This document shows, piece after piece, positions 1-5,175 of a stretch of DNA of 5,175 nt (position 1 is the stretch's first letter; each line of letters opens with the position of its first letter). The stretch lies in IMG/VR virus record IMGVR_UViG_2537562091_000002. One strand, 5' to 3'. A program made the translations under genes and the position numbers. The stretch comes from a virus. Its lineage: Duplodnaviria > Heunggongvirae > Uroviricota > Caudoviricetes. A model generated the notes under the pieces. That model was given only the letters and a program-made list of their open reading frames with translations. It did no database searches and was not told where the DNA came from.

Positions 1-195
1 CCTGTCATACGCGTAAAACAGCCAGCGCTGGCGCGATTTAGCCCCGACATAGCCCCACTGTTCGTCCATTTCCGCGCAGACGATGACGTCACTGCCCGGC
101 TGTATGCGCGAGGTTACCGACTGCGGCCTGAGTTTTTTAAGTGACGTAAAATCGTGTTGAGGCCAACGCCCATAATGCGGGCTGTTGCCCGGCAT
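1..195 (-). CDS. insB: IS1 InsB, 5' part only (65 codons; 3' end lies beyond the window)
   Basis: Minus-strand ATG at 193-195, then [65 protein letters not shown] to position 1; overlaps insA in another frame as in canonical IS1. Confidence 0.8.
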
Positions 196-389
196 CCAAC
201 GCCATTCATGGCCATATCAATGATTTTCTGGTGCGTACCGGGTTGAGAAGCGGTGTAAGTGAACTGCAGTTGCCATGTTTTACGGCAGTGAGAGCAGAGA
301 TAGCGCTGATGTCCGGCAGTGCTTTTGCCGTTACGCACCACCCCGTCAGTAGCTGAACAGGAGGGACAGCTGATAGAAACAGAAGCCAC
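114..389 (-). CDS. insA: IS1 InsA (transposition regulator / N-terminal part of the InsAB' transposase), GTG start
   Basis: 91-aa translation [40 protein letters not shown]...LKNSGRSR matches recalled IS1 InsA throughout; stop TAA at 114-116. Confidence 0.95.
132..138 (-). other. IS1 A6C slippery run (programmed -1 frameshift site producing InsAB')
   Basis: Minus strand reads TTAAAAAACTC here, at the insA/insB overlap. The role of this motif in IS1 is established knowledge. Confidence 0.7.
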
Positions 390-517: not shown

Positions 518-811
518 TCACCCACGATTAACCAACAGCCAGATCAGCAGACACGCCACCACCGGCACAGCAAAATCCATCAGGCTTGCCACATCCCAAA
601 CACGCGGATCAAAACCGCCCCACCACGGCATGTTAATCCGCTTGCCATGCCCGAACATTTCAATCCAGCGATATTCTGCCTGGGTGTGTTCACGCGCAAT
701 GAAGAACGTACAACCAGCTATCGCCCCATAAGCCCAGTTTCCGGTAAAAAGACCAACCAGTGTCTGCGCAGCCACAGCACAAAGCGCATGAAGAAAAGGT
801 GTTATATCCAT
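518..811 (-). CDS. Small predicted membrane protein (97 aa), function unknown; last gene of the post-fibre cassette
   Basis: ORF with ATG at 809-811 preceded by AGGAGGAG immediately after the upstream stop. Hydrophobic stretches FLHALCAVAAQTLVGLF, WAYGAIAGCTFFIA and FAVPVVACLLIWLLV flank a charged loop containing WWGGFDPRVWD. No family recognised by eye. Confidence 0.6.
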   Translation of the reverse strand: MDITPFLHALCAVAAQTLVGLFTGNWAYGAIAGCTFFIAREHTQAEYRWIEMFGHGKRINMPWWGGFDPRVWDVASLMDFAVPVVACLLIWLLVNRG

Positions 812-821
812 TACTCCTCCT

Positions 822-1526
822 TTATCTAATATCGCTTCGGGAAGTTAATAACAACTTTAATTCTGACTCAAGTTCATCAACTCTTTCAGTCAGTTTCTGG
901 ATATGGTGAATCAGTGGAACAACCAGACGTTCGTACATTACACCTTCGGCAACAAGGCCATTGCTGGAAATAGCTTCAGGAGCATCATCTTCGTTAGCTG
1001 GTCGCCAGTGTACAAACTGAGGAGCAATTTCTCCTACTTCCTCGGCAATCAATCCGTAGAATCCCCAGTCACGCCTGTCATTTTCGCATTGCGACCTGTA
1101 CCACACAGGGCGCATCCTGAAAATGAGATCGGCGTGCTCTGAATCTATTGTCTCTACTGAATGTTTATAGCGGATAGACGATGTTGACCGCAGCACAGAC
1201 GAAATTGCAGGGTCAGGATTAAGATAAAGGTTTGCCGCCGCTGTAGTCGTGGCCAAATTCCATAAATAAAACGCTTCACGACCTGTCAGTGGATAAAAAT
1301 CTCCGCCATAACGACCACTTTCCAGATCGTTCACTTCCACTTTGTTTTTCAGCTTATTATCAACTTCAGTTTTTGTGTATCTGGAGCTGATATCCTGCTT
1401 TGCACTGGTCATCTCAGTCTGAAGCGTTGATACTTTTCTGCTAATTGATGAAATATCTTCCTTAGCTTTACTGACATCCCCCTTTAGCTTGGTGATATCT
1501 CCTGGAATTACTGTCGATGTAGCCAT
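822..1526 (-). CDS. Standalone coiled-coil protein (234 aa) with a C-terminal peptidase-S74-type intramolecular chaperone domain (tail-fibre/tailspike auto-chaperone type)
   Basis: ATG at 1524-1526, with GAGG overlapping the upstream stop 9 nt before it. Residues about 10-65 show 3-4 spaced hydrophobics (heptad pattern). Residues about 116-234 (SSIRYKHSVETID...RPVWYR...GLIAEEVGEIAPQFV...YERLVVPLIHHIQKL...ELESELKLL) fit the recalled S74 IMC consensus (SDrrlK...lrPvsYrY...GliAQEv...). Confidence 0.8.
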   Translation of the reverse strand: MATSTVIPGDITKLKGDVSKAKEDISSISRKVSTLQTEMTSAKQDISSRYTKTEVDNKLKNKVEVNDLESGRYGGDFYPLTGREAFYLWNLATTTAAANLYLNPDPAISSVLRSTSSIRYKHSVETIDSEHADLIFRMRPVWYRSQCENDRRDWGFYGLIAEEVGEIAPQFVHWRPANEDDAPEAISSNGLVAEGVMYERLVVPLIHHIQKLTERVDELESELKLLLTSRSDIR

Positions 1527-1535
1527 TTTCCTGCC

Positions 1536-1817
1536 TCACATCCAGCCACGAAGTTGATGCTCAACAACAACCGCGTATTTATCGAATATTGACGATTTTT
1601 TTGCATCATTAATGATGCGCACGTTTACAAAATATCCGTCTTCCTTAACACATACCGGCTCGCCATCTTCAGTAAGTTCTCCGGTTTCTTTGTACACGTT
1701 ACCTATCACGTCAATAAGAATATCATCCTGCATCGACTCGTCATCATAATAGCCAGCACTCTTCATAAAGGCCGAAAAGTCGGCCTTGTCTGTGAATTTG
1801 ATAATTAAATCTCGCAT
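1536..1817 (-). CDS. Small acidic hypothetical protein (93 aa), translationally coupled to the fibre gene
   Basis: ATG at 1815-1817 overlaps the fibre stop (minus strand reads TAATG); GGGAGAG lies upstream. Asp/Glu-rich product (MRDLIIKFTDKADFSAFMKSAGYYDDESMQDD...). No similarity to Tfa recognised. Confidence 0.6.
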   Translation of the reverse strand: MRDLIIKFTDKADFSAFMKSAGYYDDESMQDDILIDVIGNVYKETGELTEDGEPVCVKEDGYFVNVRIINDAKKSSIFDKYAVVVEHQLRGWM

Positions 1818-3784
1818 TATATTATCTCTCCCATTTGCGCATCGGTTAATTCTTTATGCCATATTCTAAAATTCCTGATATAACCAAATAAATGACGTAA
1901 GCCGGCTGTAGTCTGGCCTCCAATCCTTATACCTGTAGCACCACTAACACTCTTCCACGTTGTTGATGCTGGTGTTGATAAAACCCCATTGCAGCCAGCC
2001 TGAAACTTGCCATCGCTTTTTATTCTATATACAGCGATAATCTTTCTTGGGTAATTTCCAGGTGGAAATGATATTGGATTACCAAATTGAACATATGGAG
2101 TTCCTACACTACCTGCTGTATTTCTGAATGCAAAAACAAAAGCGTCGTCTTTTGTTTTAAATCCTGTTATATCATAAATTCTAGGCGCGGAATTTGGTGC
2201 CATAGACCAATTTTTATTCACTTCAACCATGCAGGTTAAAGGTTTGCTGGCCATGTTATTTTTACAAGGCAATGTAACAATATCGCTTGCTCGCGTTGAT
2301 GCAACTGTATCGGAAATGATAAAAGATGATGCGCATGAGCCGCCTTCAAATTGTGGTGTCGTAACATCCAAATATTCCCCGCCCAAATAAGTTCCAGGTG
2401 AAACAGGTGGAGCAATTTGGATCTGAGAGCCAACCATATTATCAATAGCTTCAGATTGATATGTAACCTCGAAATAAATCCATCCATTAGATTCTTTCTC
2501 CGCTCGGGCGGTTATTCTTGCAGCCCCTCCTCCCGTTTTCCTAATGGACATATCTGTTATATTAAGATATGCATCTGCCAGATAAAAATATGCGGACCCG
2601 TCATATCTTTCAAATCTTATACGACATTGTATATTAGCACTATCGCTTTTTACACGACATGATGTTGTAACATACTTTTCAGTTCCAGTAACATCGACAC
2701 CTCTTCCTCCTGAAACCGCAGCGATATTCATTGTCGTATTTGTCCCAATTTTTTCGTCCTTTATTTGAAACCGCCCATAAGTAAAGCCAAACTCATCAAC
2801 ACCACTTTCTGTTATAGTTACACTTGTTGTAGCTCCCCACTTAGATGGCGTAAGTGAATTAAGATGATAGTTGGTTCTTTGTCCTTCAATCAGCAAACCT
2901 TCTCGTTCAAATCGCGGTTCGTCAACTTCAGCAACGGTTAATACTCCTGATTTATTAATGTATGTTGCACCTGATGCGCGTTTGAAGCTAACAACCTTAT
3001 CGGATGGCATTTTAATAACATCATCACCTACAGTTATTTGCTTATAACCAGGCGAAAAGCCAGCAAGCATATCCAGTGAATCGTTAAACGGTATCCACAC
3101 ATCGGGAAGCGGCTGCAAAACTTGTTTATACGGCTCCGCAGCCTGGCTTGCATACTCTCTGGCTGCGTCTTCACTTGCTTTTGCAGCCGTCTGGCTTGCA
3201 GCGGATGCTTTCGCCGAGTTAGCCGCCGCAGTCTCGCTCGCCTTTGCGTTGGTTTCACTGGTTTTTGCAGCTTTTTGACTGTTGGCTGATGCAGTGGCAG
3301 AAGAAGCCGCCGCACTTGCAGAACCAGCTGCGGCACTCTCGCTTTGGGCCGCTGCATCCTGACTGTTTTTCGCCGCAGTTTCGCTGGCTTTGGCATTCGT
3401 TTCGCTGGTCTTCGCTGCCGTCTGGCTGGACTTTGCGTTAGTTTCGCTCGTCTTCGCTGCTTTCTGGCTGTTAGCTGCAGCAGTTGCTGATCCAGCTGCT
3501 GAAGTCGCAGAACCGGCTGCCGCACTCTCGCTTTCGGCTGCTGCAGCCTGACTGCTTTTCGCCGCAGTTTCACTGGTTTTGGCATTCGTTTCGCTTGTTT
3601 TCGCTGCCGCCTGGCTGGACTTTGCGTTGGTTTCGCTCGTCTTTGCTGCTGTCTCGCTATTTTTCGCGTTGTTTTCTGATTTTTTAGCTGCTGTCGCGGA
3701 GTTTGCCGATGCAGTCTGCGAGGCCGCTGCCGCCTGTGCGCTGTTAACCTGAATCGGTTCGTGCTGCCTTTGCGGTTTCCTGAT
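1817..3784 (-). CDS. Side tail fibre protein (Stf family), N-terminally truncated remnant. Open frame 3784-1817 with no canonical start; the only start candidate is TTG at 3116-3118. C-terminal LamG/concanavalin-A-like lectin-type domain.
   Basis: Manual translation of the frame continuous with the 1817..3118 ORF stays open up to TGA at 3785-3787. Residues upstream of 3118 read ...AAKTSETNAKASETAAKNSQDAAAQSESAAAGSA..., typical of lambda Stf-type shaft repeats. The C-terminus ...IGGQTTAGLRHLFGYIRNFRIWHKELTDAQMGEII fits the LamG signature (IGG...G.IDEVRIYNRALSAEEI). Confidence 0.8.
   Translation of the reverse strand: MRKPQRQHEPIQVNSAQAAAASQTASANSATAAKKSENNAKNSETAAKTSETNAKSSQAAAKTSETNAKTSETAAKSSQAAAAESESAAAGSATSAAGSATAAANSQKAAKTSETNAKSSQTAAKTSETNAKASETAAKNSQDAAAQSESAAAGSASAAASSATASANSQKAAKTSETNAKASETAAANSAKASAASQTAAKASEDAAREYASQAAEPYKQVLQPLPDVWIPFNDSLDMLAGFSPGYKQITVGDDVIKMPSDKVVSFKRASGATYINKSGVLTVAEVDEPRFEREGLLIEGQRTNYHLNSLTPSKWGATTSVTITESGVDEFGFTYGRFQIKDEKIGTNTTMNIAAVSGGRGVDVTGTEKYVTTSCRVKSDSANIQCRIRFERYDGSAYFYLADAYLNITDMSIRKTGGGAARITARAEKESNGWIYFEVTYQSEAIDNMVGSQIQIAPPVSPGTYLGGEYLDVTTPQFEGGSCASSFIISDTVASTRASDIVTLPCKNNMASKPLTCMVEVNKNWSMAPNSAPRIYDITGFKTKDDAFVFAFRNTAGSVGTPYVQFGNPISFPPGNYPRKIIAVYRIKSDGKFQAGCNGVLSTPASTTWKSVSGATGIRIGGQTTAGLRHLFGYIRNFRIWHKELTDAQMGEII
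3240..3720. repeat. In-frame tandem direct repeat, period 189 bp (63 codons), about 2.5 copies, encoding the fibre shaft low-complexity repeats
   Basis: Near-identical blocks start at 3321 and 3510 (GAACCAGCTGCGGCACTCTCGCTTTGGGCC... vs GAACCGGCTGCCGCACTCTCGCTTTCGGCT...). The sub-motif CTTTGCGTT.GTTTC.CT.GT recurs near 3242, 3431 and 3621. Confidence 0.85.
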
Positions 3785-3791
3785 TCAGCAT
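3744..3791 (-). pseudogene. 15-codon stub (MLNQETAKAARTDSG*), interpreted as the remnant 5' end of the gene after nu1 (terminase large subunit by position)
   Basis: ATG overlaps the nu1 stop as TAATG and is preceded by AGGAGGAG. The frame stops after 15 codons exactly where the Stf-type repeat sequence begins. Too short to identify by sequence; the call rests on position. Confidence 0.35.
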
Positions 3792-4285
3792 TACTCCTCC
3801 TGCTGTAATTCCTCCTCATCATCCGCACCTGCTTCAGTCACCCGCAGGGCTATCTGATCGCGCAGATCATCAATAATGGACTGAACACGGCTCACAGCGG
3901 CAGGCTGCAGACCGCAGTCACGTTCAAGAATATCCGGTAATGTCTCCAGCACCTGCACGACCGCTTTTGCCCAGATGGCAAACTCCCGTCTGACATCACT
4001 GGCCGGAATGAGTTGTGCCGTTTCCTGTTCGAACTTAAGACGCTCACGTTCAGACTGATACCAGGCTTTGCGCTCATGCGCGTCCATTTCGCCTTCTGCA
4101 ACCGGCGGTGGTAATGCCAGAAATGCCGACACAATATCAACCACCCGATAAAGCTTGAGGTTGCTTTCATGCCCCCCTGCAACGGGTAGATTTTGCAGCC
4201 TTGCCGCAGCAGTCTGGCGATGTACACCTGACAATGCCGCCAGTTGACTGATATTCAGCGTCAGATTTTTTAACTCTCGATCCAT
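3791..4285 (-). CDS. Terminase small subunit, lambda Nu1 / Noh family (164 aa)
   Basis: ATG at 4283-4285 with GGAG 7 nt upstream. N-terminal HTH-like segment LNISQLAALSGVHRQTAAARL parallels lambda Nu1 KKQLADIFGASIRTIQNWQ. Sits about 175 bp downstream of a cosN-like site, as in lambda. Confidence 0.85.
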   Translation of the reverse strand: MDRELKNLTLNISQLAALSGVHRQTAAARLQNLPVAGGHESNLKLYRVVDIVSAFLALPPPVAEGEMDAHERKAWYQSERERLKFEQETAQLIPASDVRREFAIWAKAVVQVLETLPDILERDCGLQPAAVSRVQSIIDDLRDQIALRVTEAGADDEEELQQEE

Positions 4286-4500
4286 ACCCGCTCCAGAATG
4301 TTTTAAACATGCATCTTGCGAACAACTTTAGGCAAACGGTGTTAGTGATGAACAAAAAACAATCAGAATCGACACCATAAAAATAAAACAACTGTAATAT
4401 CAATCAATTACAGTAGTGGTGATGACGAATAAAATTTCAAAAACTAGCCTTTTTCCGCGACGCTCCCGCCCCGTGGCAGGGCCCCCCCACTGGGAGGACC
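4286..4500 (-). other. cos region: cosN-like 12-mer (minus strand GGGCGGGAGCGT, plus 4460-4471), cosQ-like sequence on the high-coordinate side, AT-rich cosB-like spacer towards nu1
   Basis: Minus strand reads ...GGGTCCTCCCAGTGGGGGGGCCCTGCCACG GGGCGGGAGCGT CGCGGAAAAAGG... Recalled lambda is ...GGGTCCTTTCCGGTGATCCGACAGGTTACG GGGCGGCGACCT CGCGGGTTTTCGC... The 12-mer matches 8/12, both nick-flanking triplets/pentamers match, and the spacing to GGGTCCT is the same. Confidence 0.55.
4391..4414. repeat. Perfect 8-bp inverted repeat with 8-bp spacer (ACTGTAAT-ATCAATCA-ATTACAGT) inside the cosB-like spacer
   Basis: Read directly from the sequence; function unknown. Confidence 0.5.
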
Positions 4501-4718
4501 CGACAGCCTGACAACCGTGACGAGCATCTGTAACAGAGCTTTACATAATGGCATGGGGATAATTCAGAAGGACATCACAGCATGCCCACACAAATTAGTG
4601 TGAGTGTCCTGTTTCTTACTACGCGCAGGACTGACGAGCATGAGGGGAAAATACGAGAAACGAAATGCCTTATCTTCAGAAATGCAGCCGGCATCCGAAC
4701 TGGACGATATTGTAAATT

Positions 4719-4757
4719 TGATCTTACCCAGCAATAGTGGACACGCGGCTAAGTGAG
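4719..4757. repeat. IS3 left terminal inverted repeat (approximate extent)
   Basis: Element terminus begins with TG at 4719; the roughly 39-bp IR length is recalled, not measured. Confidence 0.6.
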
Positions 4758-4783
4758 TAAACTCTCAGTCAGAGGTGACTCAC

Positions 4784-5083
4784 ATGACAAAAACAGTATC
4801 AACCAGTAAAAAACCCCGTAAACAGCATTCGCCTGAATTTCGCAGTGAAGCCCTGAAGCTTGCTGAACGCATCGGTGTTACTGCCGCAGCCCGTGAACTC
4901 AGCCTGTATGAATCACAGCTCTACAACTGGCGCAGTAAACAGCAAAATCAGCAGACGTCTTCTGAACGTGAACTGGAGATGTCTACCGAGATTGCACGTC
5001 TCAAACGCCAGCTGGCAGAACGGGATGAAGAGCTGGCTATCCTCCAAAAGGCCGCGACATACTTCGCGAAGCGCCTGAAATGA
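4784..5083 (+). CDS. insE: IS3 OrfA (InsE). The ORF track starts at GTG 4775; the canonical ATG is at 4784 with AGAGG upstream.
   Basis: Translation MTKTVSTSKKPRKQHSPEFRSEALKLAERIGVTAAARELSLYESQLYNWRSKQQNQ...ATYFAKRLK matches recalled InsE. The CCAAAAG slippery motif lies at about 5043-5049. Confidence 0.9.
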   Translation: MTKTVSTSKKPRKQHSPEFRSEALKLAERIGVTAAARELSLYESQLYNWRSKQQNQQTSSERELEMSTEIARLKRQLAERDEELAILQKAATYFAKRLK

Positions 5084-5175
5084 AGTATGTCTTTATTGAA
5101 AACATCAGGCTGAGTTCAGCATCAAAGCAATGTGCCGCGTGCTCCGGGTGGCCCGCAGCGGCTGGTATACGTGGT
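5080..5175 (+). CDS. insF: IS3 OrfB (InsF), 5' part only, with an apparent 1-nt deletion in an A-run (possibly inactivating, possibly a homopolymer sequencing error)
   Basis: ATG at 5080 encodes MKYVFIE in frame 1. The conserved continuation HQAEFSIKAMCRVLRVARSGWYTW is encoded from 5103 in a different frame. The window has GAAAAC where the recalled sequence has GAAAAAC. Confidence 0.7.
   Translation, partial: MKYVFIENIRLSSASKQCAACSGWPAAAGIRG

Follow-up and report, generated by a model that had tools for sequence, protein, structure and literature searches.

What does a phage protein of 234 aa do if half of it is a putatively self-cleaving chaperone and no large receptor-binding body stands in front of that half? 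The question is raised by an open reading frame in 5175 nt of caudoviral DNA (IMG/VR record IMGVR_UViG_2537562091_000002; 'the window' below is this whole stretch). The original prediction, made from the sequence alone, described a standalone protein composed of a heptad coiled coil and a peptidase S74-type intramolecular chaperone (IMC) domain. The frame with both of its parts was confirmed at exactly 822..1526 on the minus strand. We refer to it as gene 3 and to the two genes preceding it as gene 1 and gene 2 (Table 1).

Table 1. Features of the window related to gene 3 (residue numbers refer to the gene-3 product unless stated otherwise)
Feature	Coordinates	Strand	Basis or remark
Gene 3, short distal side-tail-fibre protein (probable role), 234 aa	822..1526	-	ATG start, TAA stop
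N-terminal motif, residues 1-15, MATSTVIPGDITKLK	1482..1526	-	Common to all gene-3 alleles; putative docking peptide
Heptad coiled coil (10-48) followed by YTKTEVDNKLK fibre-shaft motif; residues 10-60	1347..1499	-	Heptads, AF2
IMC-proximal stalk or tip, non-helical, residues 61-115	1182..1346	-	Homology to fibre ends
Peptidase_S74/IMC auto-processing domain, residues 116-234, C-terminal helix 198-233	825..1181	-	Pfam, AF2, Foldseek
Predicted dyad, Ser116 (codon 1179-1181) and Lys121 (codon 1164-1166)	1164..1181	-	Alignment
Gene 2, 93-aa protein, phrog_1361	1536..1817	-	Always between gene 1 and gene 3
Gene 1 C-terminal domain, 433 aa, lectin-like, conserved; putative partner of gene 3	1817..3118	-	GTA_spike_fiber, Laminin_G_3
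Gene 1 shaft, Ala/Ser/Thr-rich repeats, in frame with the 433-aa domain; truncated pseudogene	3119..3784	-	Frame translation
97-aa hydrophobic protein, phrog_1443, downstream of gene 3	518..811	-	Strong Shine-Dalgarno

Gene 3 has the sequence AGGA 5 nt upstream of its start, and its product is identical to RefSeq WP_000235975.1 ('tail fiber domain-containing protein'); the Qin prophage of E. coli B REL606 carries an identical gene. The allele was found in 746 of 5426 complete E. coli genomes, and 740 of these carriers hold at least 80% of the gene. Among 23 distinct prophage alleles dN/dS was 0.17 overall (0.34 in the coil, 0.13 in residues 66-115 and 0.13 in the IMC domain); gene 3 is under purifying selection, a real gene and not a chance ORF. 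Intact ORFs of 221-245 aa, 56-60% identical to the lambdoid copy, are present in many independent isolates of virulent T1-like phages (Drexlerviridae). Across phages the gene-3 proteins fall into length classes of 231-234, 333-348 and 574 aa. A match to phrog_3299 (profile positions 1147-1383 of 1385) could indicate a C-terminal fragment of a larger gene; this idea was rejected because all homologues share the start Met and the N-terminal motif and lie directly after gene 2. Gene 3 occurs commonly in E. coli prophages and is an ordinary representative of a known type. Two further ORFs of the window, an antisense one at 903..1142 (plus strand) and an Arg-rich one of 264 aa at 3034..3828 (minus strand), were treated as frame artefacts of real genes.

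S74 domains are established to act in cis on the directly preceding segment. In the gene-3 product, Pfam family PF13884 (Peptidase_S74, IPR030392) matched residues 116-172 over profile positions 1-57 of 58, with 27.5 bits (E = 3.9e-6; curated cut-off 22 bits). The AlphaFold2 monomer model (pLDDT ~90 at residues 120-233) has the beta-rich core and the long C-terminal helix of the IMC fold, and its best Foldseek matches in the PDB were the three solved IMC domains: MyRF ICA (7dc3, E = 1.7e-5), GA-1 gp12 (3gud) and K1F endosialidase (3gw6). With a score above the cut-off, a matching fold and a conserved dyad (see below), the S74/IMC assignment of the original prediction was borne out. A sequence search of the PDB with a 43-sequence profile reached one relative only, the C-terminus of the L-shaped fibre protein LtfA of the T5-like phage DT57C (8hqz_d), and retrieved neither endoNF nor T5 pb1; the link of gene 3 to these two therefore rests on fold and Pfam.

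The gene-3 segment TSSIRYK aligns with TSGIEYK of DT57C LtfA, with Ser116 at the nucleophile position of the family and Lys121 at i+5. A Ser-Lys pair at i, i+5 is kept in 148 of 150 representative relatives; among 43 homologues Lys121 is invariant, and Ser116 and Ser117 are each kept in at least 90%. The dyad S587/K592 of MyRF corresponds to S911/K916 of endoNF, and the cut is made N-terminal of the Ser (PMC8326128). By this alignment, the scissile bond of the gene-3 product is predicted to lie between Thr115 and Ser116, in the Ser116/Ser117 region named in advance. Such a cut would release chains with computed masses of 12.6 kDa (residues 1-115) and 13.9 kDa (residues 116-234), in agreement with the earlier estimates of ~12 and ~13 kDa. 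Cryo-EM maps of mature fibres show no S74 domain (10.1101/2024.10.28.620165).

As judged from sequence, the gene-3 allele joins three parts: the motif with the coil, a stalk of ~65 aa and the IMC domain. The coil consists of five perfect heptads (residues 10-48) with I, L, M, V or A at 11 of 11 a/d positions, a regularity matched by none of 20 000 shuffles; AlphaFold2 placed helices at residues 11-47 and 52-60. The number of heptads differs between gene-3 alleles, and the YTKTEVD motif also matches the shaft repeats of DT57C LtfA. The pre-domain part had been described as ~110 residues of mostly coiled coil; the coil is there, but its extent was overstated, as residues 61-115 are non-helical. 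This stalk terminates in the conserved signature ...TTTxxANLYLxPxxxxSxVLRST and is 57-60% identical to the last ~55-65 pre-cleavage residues of fibres of 539-1243 aa, which carry PF08400, PF12571 or Gp34_trimer N-terminal parts. The module of stalk and IMC domain also terminates complete Stf-type and P2-type fibres. In the monomer model pLDDT is below 50 in the stalk (about residues 61-115), with no confident structure at 63-114; we read these values as what may be expected of an obligate trimer. There are only ~55 non-helical residues between the coil and the cleavage site, a generic stalk common to unrelated fibres, and therefore the 234-aa gene 3 is a short allele that lacks a receptor-binding domain and is not a typical cassette member. 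No binding domain was recognized in the mature part (1-115) of this allele.

The protein is not standalone, as had been proposed. Gene 3 is the third cistron of a tightly packed, co-directional side-tail-fibre operon (gene 1, gene 2, gene 3), and its N-terminal motif is common to much larger distal fibre proteins. The gene-1 stop overlaps the gene-2 start (TAATG) and gene 3 begins 9 nt past the gene-2 stop; the frames of the cassette overlap or lie 9-10 nt apart. The same order of gene-1 domain, 93-aa gene and gene 3 was found in lambdoid phages (IdasGreatGrand, 2G7b and PhiR46_1) and in the genera Warwickvirus (PeterMerian, JLBYU19 and swan01), Nonagvirus (JenP2), Dhillonvirus (KarlBarth) and Tequintavirus (HMD-P4, IrisVonRoten and EC104). 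Among IMG/VR prophage loci that share this gene-2 subtype, 73 could be evaluated, and in 71 of them gene 3 directly follows gene 2 (40 loci with the 229-234-aa allele and 22 with the 346-aa allele). Two lambdoid phages, ev207 and ev243, have genes 1 and 2 intact and no gene 3; the contribution of gene 3 is therefore dispensable in some backgrounds. Only in its lambdoid version does the cassette include the phrog_1443 gene. An Rfam scan of the window found nothing.

The gene-1 C-terminal domain has an NCBIfam GTA_spike_fiber match and a weak Laminin_G_3 match. Over its first 85 residues, identity among the siphovirus lineages that were compared is 71-93% (39% to the rV5-like myovirus JeffSchatz), and its middle is variable. 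Gene 2 is present in 186 phage records; the AlphaFold2 model of its product has a ferredoxin-like fold (pLDDT 65), for which Foldseek gave no significant match in the PDB (best matches ribosomal uS10 and PII proteins, E > 0.02).

All gene-3 alleles start with the motif M-x-T-x-T-x-I-P-x-D-I-x-x-L-K. In seven proteins representing the lambdoid, Warwickvirus, Nonagvirus, Tequintavirus and Dhillonvirus lineages, M1, T3, T5, I7, P8, D10, I11, L14 and K15 are invariant; outside the motif these proteins are 25-29% identical or unrelated. Families phrog_4563 and phrog_19752 match residues 1-32 only, and a set of 5.8 billion proteins, searched with a profile of the N-terminal 45 residues, yielded short fragments only.

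A structural prediction is available for a longer allele. In AlphaFold-Multimer models of the Tequintavirus IrisVonRoten (Bas32), Gp24 was placed on the proximal fibre Gp22, the end of which is a galectin-like domain (10.1101/2024.09.12.612763). Genes for Gp22, Gp23 and Gp24 have the same order as the cassette of the window; the C-terminal domain of Gp22 is 81-93% identical to the gene-1 domain over the first 345 residues, Gp23 is 40% identical to the gene-2 product, and Gp24 begins with MVTKTVIPTDITKLK, the same motif as in gene 3, and ends in an S74 domain. Gene order, direction, tight spacing and N-terminal motif of the IrisVonRoten cassette type are thus all present in the window. The distal proteins differ in that Gp24 is a T-shaped fibre of 574 aa with two predicted receptor-binding domains, whereas gene 3 has 234 aa and none; their S74 domains belong to different subfamilies (SDSRLK in Gp24 versus SSIRYK in gene 3). 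Conservation of the motif, together with the published prediction for this different allele, suggests that the gene-3 N-terminal peptide docks on the lectin-like domain of gene 1, where the segment GDDEITMPGDKIVKFKRAS is a candidate docking site.

We consider it fairly probable that the gene-3 product is the shortest allele of an exchangeable distal subunit of a two-part side (lateral) tail fibre, which is close to the 'tip or adaptor protein' suggested initially. Assembly could proceed as follows. The C-terminal IMC domain would set three gene-3 chains in register, with its last helix forming a trimeric coiled coil; it would template the stalk (61-115) and so allow the N-terminal heptads to come together as a trimeric coiled coil. 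Cleavage by the Ser116-Lys121 dyad would follow and the 13.9-kDa chaperone would depart, leaving a trimer of 12.6-kDa chains on the virion, anchored by the N-terminal peptide at the distal lectin-like domain of gene 1, possibly with the gene-2 product. The 234-aa allele could not accommodate a receptor-binding domain and would most likely form a short cap or an extension; in this cassette the variable middle of the gene-1 domain would determine the host specificity. In the virion proteome of the cassette carrier swan01 five abundant proteins were detected, none of them a fibre protein (PMC6563131 supplement).

A bolder form of the same proposal is tentative: the N-terminal peptide, gene 2 and the first 85 residues of the gene-1 domain may constitute a universal plug-and-socket joint on which unrelated distal modules are exchanged between coliphages of at least five lineages. 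In this scheme the 234-aa allele would be a 'blank plug' devoid of a receptor-binding domain. Such a plug would occupy and stabilize the socket, or supply IMC-driven trimerization, rather than bind a receptor.

The architecture of gene 3 had been called unusual and minimal. Its domain agrees with those of K1F endosialidase, GA-1 gp12, T5 pb1, DT57C LtfA and MyRF ICA in fold, C-terminal position, Ser-Lys dyad at i, i+5 and C-terminal trimerizing helix. The difference lies upstream: in K1F endosialidase, GA-1 gp12, T5 pb1, LtfA and MyRF hundreds of beta-helix, spike or tip residues precede the domain, and in gene 3 there are 115 residues, about half of them coiled coil (the median of relatives is 362). 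Still, the combination of coiled coil and S74 has been described as a tail-fibre class (TC7, 10.1101/2024.10.28.620165; Figure 12C legend of 10.1101/2024.09.12.612763), and lateral fibres with a coiled coil, a T5-like tip and an IMC domain were described for the small siphoviruses JakobBernoulli (Gp36) and RuthEpting (Gp29) (10.1101/2024.09.12.612763). Class TC7 and these two proteins, like gene 3, have an N-terminal coiled coil followed by a short tip and S74; unlike gene 3, they are described as complete fibres with a receptor-binding tip. At most 135 residues precede the cleavage site in 17 of the 150 representative relatives (about 11%), a count that includes two proteins without a Met start and some truncated fragments of the same gene. 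Given the described class, these similarly short relatives and the 746 E. coli carriers, 'unusual' was an overstatement.

The branched L-shaped fibres of DT57C offer a parallel: a second protein, LtfB, attaches by its N-terminus to LtfA, both proteins end in S74, and LtfA is unstable without LtfB (PMC4728585, PMC10713586). The DT57C cassette is different, however; LtfA has its own IMC domain, a 93-aa gene is missing, the N-terminus of LtfB is similar to phiEco32 gp15 and not to the gene-3 motif, and similarity to gene 3 is limited to the IMC domain and the YTKTEVD shaft repeat.

The instability of LtfA without LtfB (PMC4728585) is among the observations that would fit another, in our view unlikely, role of gene 3, that of a trans-acting assembly factor which never stays on the virion: its N-terminus would dock transiently while the S74 domain aids trimerization of the gene-1 lectin-like domain. 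Gene 1 itself lacks an IMC domain, the cassette contains no intact Tfa-type chaperone gene, and the mature part of the 234-aa allele is too small for a receptor-binding domain. The homologue is also called a chaperone in the records of PeterMerian, KarlJaspers and HMD-P4 (GenBank 'putative lateral tail fiber chaperone'), but these names were carried over from 'chaperone of endosialidase' and are not results of experiments. Action of S74 domains in cis on the segment immediately upstream (PMC8326128) argues against a trans role, as do the purifying selection on the pre-cleavage region and the persistence of intact genes 1 and 2 without gene 3 in ev207 and ev243. Moreover, the same motif heads clear fibres with large distal domains (346 and 574 aa) and, in the KarlBarth gp30/gp31 allele, a protein entirely without IMC. 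In Pfam, NCBIfam and PHROGs, gene 3 has no match to trans-acting chaperone families (lambda Tfa, Mu GpU or T4 gp38 and gp57A types); its family matches there are to S74 and tail-fibre families only.

Side tail fibres are dispensable in the laboratory, and lambda PaPa lacks stf. One could then imagine the short gene 3 as a degenerate recombinational leftover without the receptor-binding middle, roleless and persisting as a harmless neighbour linked to gene 1. It has the look of a chimera, with adaptor and coil joined at the YTKTEV fibre-repeat motif to a generic stalk and IMC domain, and the adjacent gene 1 is broken both in the window and in REL606. We find this improbable in view of dN/dS of 0.13-0.34 in all three regions (23 alleles), the retention of at least 80% of the gene in 740 of 746 carriers, and the intact 221-245-aa ORF of many independently isolated virulent T1-like phages. 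The suggested decoy or defence function, by which a prophage-encoded stub would interfere with fibres of superinfecting phages, found no support and is highly improbable: gene 3 does stay intact in defective prophages and the shared motif could in principle compete with distal fibres of incoming cassette-bearing phages, but PADLOC gave no defence match, strictly virulent phages carry the same allele, and its place in the operon, coupled to fibre genes, speaks for a structural role.

The distal-subunit reading is of practical value for engineering phages and for predicting their host range. Were the 15-residue motif to prove a portable docking peptide, one could rationally exchange distal modules among phages of the lambdoid, T1-like, T5-like, Nonagvirus and Dhillonvirus groups; in that case the 115-residue stub would represent the minimum needed by the socket and the S74 chaperone, and gene 3 would be a compact model substrate for S74 autoprocessing. 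For gene 3, 'chaperone of endosialidase' and 'lateral tail fiber chaperone' are probably misleading labels; 'short distal fibre subunit with self-cleaving chaperone domain' would be a better annotation.

In the window itself gene 1 is without its N-terminal part, and deletion has removed the morphogenesis genes. The shaft has no start codon (the ORF listing shows no ATG, GTG or TTG before 3118 in gene 1) and no N-terminal virion-anchor domain; a side tail fibre therefore cannot be built here. With gene 1 truncated and morphogenesis genes lost, gene 3 is an intact relic that makes no virion contribution at this locus. The locus is a decayed prophage with a common gene, and nothing special follows for it. 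The gene-1 breakpoint, at ~3745, adjoins the start of terL and the small terminase gene.

Gene 3 encodes a short protein of two-part lateral tail fibres, a kind of fibre that is known, and is already annotated as a tail-fibre or S74 protein. E. coli B REL606 encodes an identical protein (WP_000235975.1, ‘tail fiber domain-containing protein’) in its Qin prophage, and gene-3 DNA, almost always at full length, is carried by 746 of the 5426 complete E. coli genomes. The original prediction located the ORF and its 234 codons correctly and called the protein standalone; gene 3 is instead the third cistron of a compact minus-strand operon. The TAA of gene 1 overlaps the ATG of gene 2 (TAATG), 9 nt separate the gene-2 stop from gene 3, and 10 nt lie between the gene-3 stop and the gene for a 97-aa protein.

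Coordinates of the features identified in the window
Feature	Position	Strand	Description
IS1	1..~444		remnant flank; InsA at 114..389 (minus)
97-aa protein gene	518..811	minus	phrog_1443; hydrophobic N- and C-terminal segments; strong AAGGAGG Shine-Dalgarno
Gene 3	822..1526	minus	ATG start, 234 codons, TAA stop
Gene 2	1536..1817	minus	93 aa
Gene 1 frame	1817..3784	minus	lambda Stf-type side tail fibre
DUF1441 small-terminase gene	3791..4285	minus	intact, 164 aa; phrog_141; Pfam 141 bits
IS3	~4700..5175		other remnant flank; orfA at 4775..5083 (plus)

The two parts originally proposed for the protein, a coiled coil and an S74 domain, both hold. Pfam model PF13884 (Peptidase_S74, ‘chaperone of endosialidase’) covers residues 116-172 with 27.5 bits, the curated cut-off being 22 bits. 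The AlphaFold2 model draws on 43 homologues and has high confidence across residues 120-233 (pLDDT about 90), showing a core rich in beta structure and a long terminal helix (198-233). Its top Foldseek matches in the PDB are solved intramolecular chaperone (IMC) domains, namely MyRF ICA (7dc3, E = 1.7e-5), GA-1 gp12 (3gud) and K1F endosialidase (3gw6). Sequence alone reveals a single relative of solved structure, the C-terminus of the L-shaped fibre protein LtfA of the T5-like phage DT57C (8hqz_d). The a/d heptad positions of residues 10-48 are all hydrophobic (11 of 11 are I, L, M, V or A, matched by none of 20000 shuffles); the model has helices at 11-47 and 52-60, and a non-helical segment, 61-115, where the monomer is modelled without confidence.

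The predicted nucleophile is Ser116, with Lys121 at i+5 completing the putative dyad, which fits the cleavage region suggested earlier. The assignment follows from the alignment of TSSIRYK with TSGIEYK of LtfA, from conservation among the 43 homologues (K121 is invariant; S116 and S117 are each retained in at least 90%), from retention of the S...K pair in 148 of 150 representative relatives, and from the MyRF dyad S587/K592 (equivalent to S911/K916 of endoNF), which cleaves N-terminal of Ser (PMC8326128). The predicted products have masses of 12.6 kDa (residues 1-115) and 13.9 kDa (116-234).

Searched exhaustively with HMMER, 1.84 billion representatives yielded 3505 relatives of gene 3. Large fibres of 539-1243 aa, whose N-terminal parts are of Stf type (PF08400), P2 type (PF12571) or Gp34_trimer, share the gene-3 sequence from residue ~44-49 to the C-terminus with 57-60% identity. 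The junction to this generic fibre module is a YTKTEVD fibre-repeat motif, and the pre-cleavage segment ...TTTxxANLYLxPxxxxSxVLRST/SSIRYK (slash, predicted cleavage site) is kept even among distant relatives. The protein is thus a three-part chimera: the cassette-specific N-terminal motif with its five heptads, then ~65 residues of generic IMC-proximal stalk, then the IMC. The short allele has no space for a receptor-binding domain. At 115 residues, its pre-cleavage part is towards the short end of the family range (median 362) and is not unique, since 17 of the 150 representatives have 135 or fewer residues there (two of the 17 lack an initial Met, and truncated fragments of gene 3 itself account for some). 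‘Unusual minimal architecture’ was therefore an overstatement, the more so as the main members of tail-fibre atlas class TC7 pair an N-terminal coiled coil with an S74 domain at the C-terminus; the S74 domain is missing from mature-fibre cryo-EM maps (10.1101/2024.10.28.620165).

The order of the cassette (gene-1 C-terminal domain, 93-aa gene, gene 3) is constant in lambdoid phages (IdasGreatGrand, 2G7b, PhiR46_1), T1-like Warwickvirus (PeterMerian, JLBYU19, swan01), Nonagvirus (JenP2), T5-like phages (HMD-P4, IrisVonRoten, EC104) and Dhillonvirus (KarlBarth). Gene 1 has shaft repeats rich in Ala/Ser/Thr and, behind them, a C-terminal domain of 433 aa. This domain matches NCBIfam GTA_spike_fiber and, weakly, Laminin_G_3/concanavalin-like lectin, and it corresponds to phrog_1419 (‘tail protein’) in the latter's C-terminal half. 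Over its first 85 residues, the siphovirus lineages compared share 71-93% identity with the window and the rV5-like myovirus JeffSchatz shares 39%; its middle varies, as a receptor-binding surface would be expected to. The gene-2 protein, conserved in 186 phage records (rV5-like myoviruses included), had no family annotation anywhere; its AlphaFold2 model (pLDDT 65) combines a ferredoxin-like beta-alpha-beta fold and a long hairpin, and gave no significant PDB match.

Gene 3 itself always starts with the motif M-[AV]-T-x-T-x-I-P-x-D-I-[TK]-x-L-K, nine positions of which are invariant in seven lineage representatives. Beyond the motif, the alleles vary in length and content: 231-234 aa (window type), 333-348 aa (a middle rich in beta structure and a canonical SDRDLK S74 domain), 574 aa (IrisVonRoten Gp24) and a form without any S74 domain (KarlBarth gp30/gp31). 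Among 80 IMG/VR prophage loci with the window's gene-2 subtype, 73 were evaluable and 71 of these had gene 3 directly behind gene 2; alleles of 229-234 aa occurred in 40 loci and of 346 aa in 22.

Several deposited Warwickvirus genomes (JLBYU19, locus L005, 2352..3090, and similar Drexlerviridae records) have the gene-3 homologue split into two overlapping CDSs, and tblastn matched it there in two pieces; the cause is a frameshift or else an error in sequencing. The 97-aa gene follows the cassette in every lambdoid version examined, with or without gene 3, and is missing from the virulent-phage cassettes; a lysogen-expressed accessory gene would fit.

When IrisVonRoten gp22 (2614-5004 of locus L010) was compared with the window's gene-1 domain (1817..3118, minus), the first 345 residues had 81-93% identity and the final 88 had 47%, a pattern that looks like a recent mosaic exchange in which temperate and virulent phages traded the presumed receptor-binding region. 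Cassettes that lack a gene 3 with the motif (loci of ev207, L095; ev243, L096; and JeffSchatz, L011) differ in one gene-1 stretch (window 2900..3000, minus) inside an otherwise highly conserved block: ev207 and ev243 have GDDVVQVASDKQVNFSRAS in place of GDDEITMPGDKIVKFKRAS, and JeffSchatz has lost part of the stretch. On these three cases only, the stretch is a candidate site for docking of the gene-3 N-terminus.

We think it rather likely that the mature gene-3 trimer stays on the gene-1 fibre as a distal piece after the S74 domain has removed itself, by steps that we infer as follows. The S74 domains would trimerise via their terminal helices and template the short stalk, after which the heptads would zip; the Ser116-Lys121 dyad would then cleave between Thr115 and Ser116, releasing the chaperone. 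The 115-residue trimer left behind would stay attached to the gene-1 fibre at its distal lectin-like domain, held by the gene-3 N-terminal peptide, perhaps jointly with the gene-2 protein. The stub of the short allele probably serves as a cap or a short extension, in which case specificity would sit in gene 1, in its variable middle part; the ‘tip or adaptor’ suggested earlier comes near this and was partly right. One idea is a conserved plug-and-socket joint, with the short allele as a plug lacking a receptor domain.

In DT57C, genetics showed that a second S74-bearing fibre protein is joined by its N-terminus to the first, which was unstable without it (PMC4728585). In AlphaFold-Multimer models of IrisVonRoten, Gp24, a distal ‘T-shaped’ fibre with a C-terminal IMC, is joined to the proximal fibre Gp22, whose C-terminus carries a galectin-like domain (extended BASEL collection, bioRxiv 10.1101/2024.09.12.612763). 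This Gp22/Gp24 fibre is the same cassette as in the window.

For 23 distinct alleles of 234 codons, taken from prophage loci, dN/dS was 0.17 overall (coil, 0.34; residues 66-115, 0.13; S74 domain, 0.13); all three parts are constrained. Several GenBank labels imply that gene 3 is a chaperone acting in trans on gene 1, which seems unlikely given that S74 domains are known to act in cis, that the pre-cleavage part is under purifying selection, and that the large alleles and one IMC-less allele bear the same N-terminal motif. Lambdoid ev207 and ev243, with intact genes 1 and 2 followed by the 97-aa gene and no gene 3, speak against it too, an objection softened by side fibres being dispensable in the laboratory. 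That gene 3 is a degenerate leftover allele is more doubtful still: the selection data oppose it, and an intact ORF of similar length is retained in many independently isolated virulent T1-like phages. The decoy role put forward earlier, or one in defence, is hardly credible, being unsupported and with no PADLOC match.

The window is a decayed prophage in which gene 1 has an open frame from 3784 to 1817, with a TTG at 3118 as its first start codon; no N-terminal virion-anchor domain and no start codon upstream of 3118 were found. Within 3119..3793 (minus), at a breakpoint at about 3745, the shaft repeats adjoin the first ~45 nt of a large-terminase gene and the small-terminase gene, which is the only packaging gene remaining. 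As the shaft is joined straight to terminase genes, the entire head and tail morphogenesis region has been deleted; with gene 1 broken as well, the intact gene 3 cannot serve a fibre in this genome. The exact arrangement occurs in no complete E. coli genome of the collection (best coverage 81%); REL606 and related strains have a tfa remnant and pinQ at the IS1 side instead. The ORF at 3034..3828 (minus) and several plus-strand ORFs at 3122..3752 were rejected as genes: long and Arg/Lys-rich or Ala/Phe-rich, they are by-products in other frames of the Ala/Ser/Thr repeats, arising from repetitive, GC-rich and strand-skewed sequence (AT skew -0.57).
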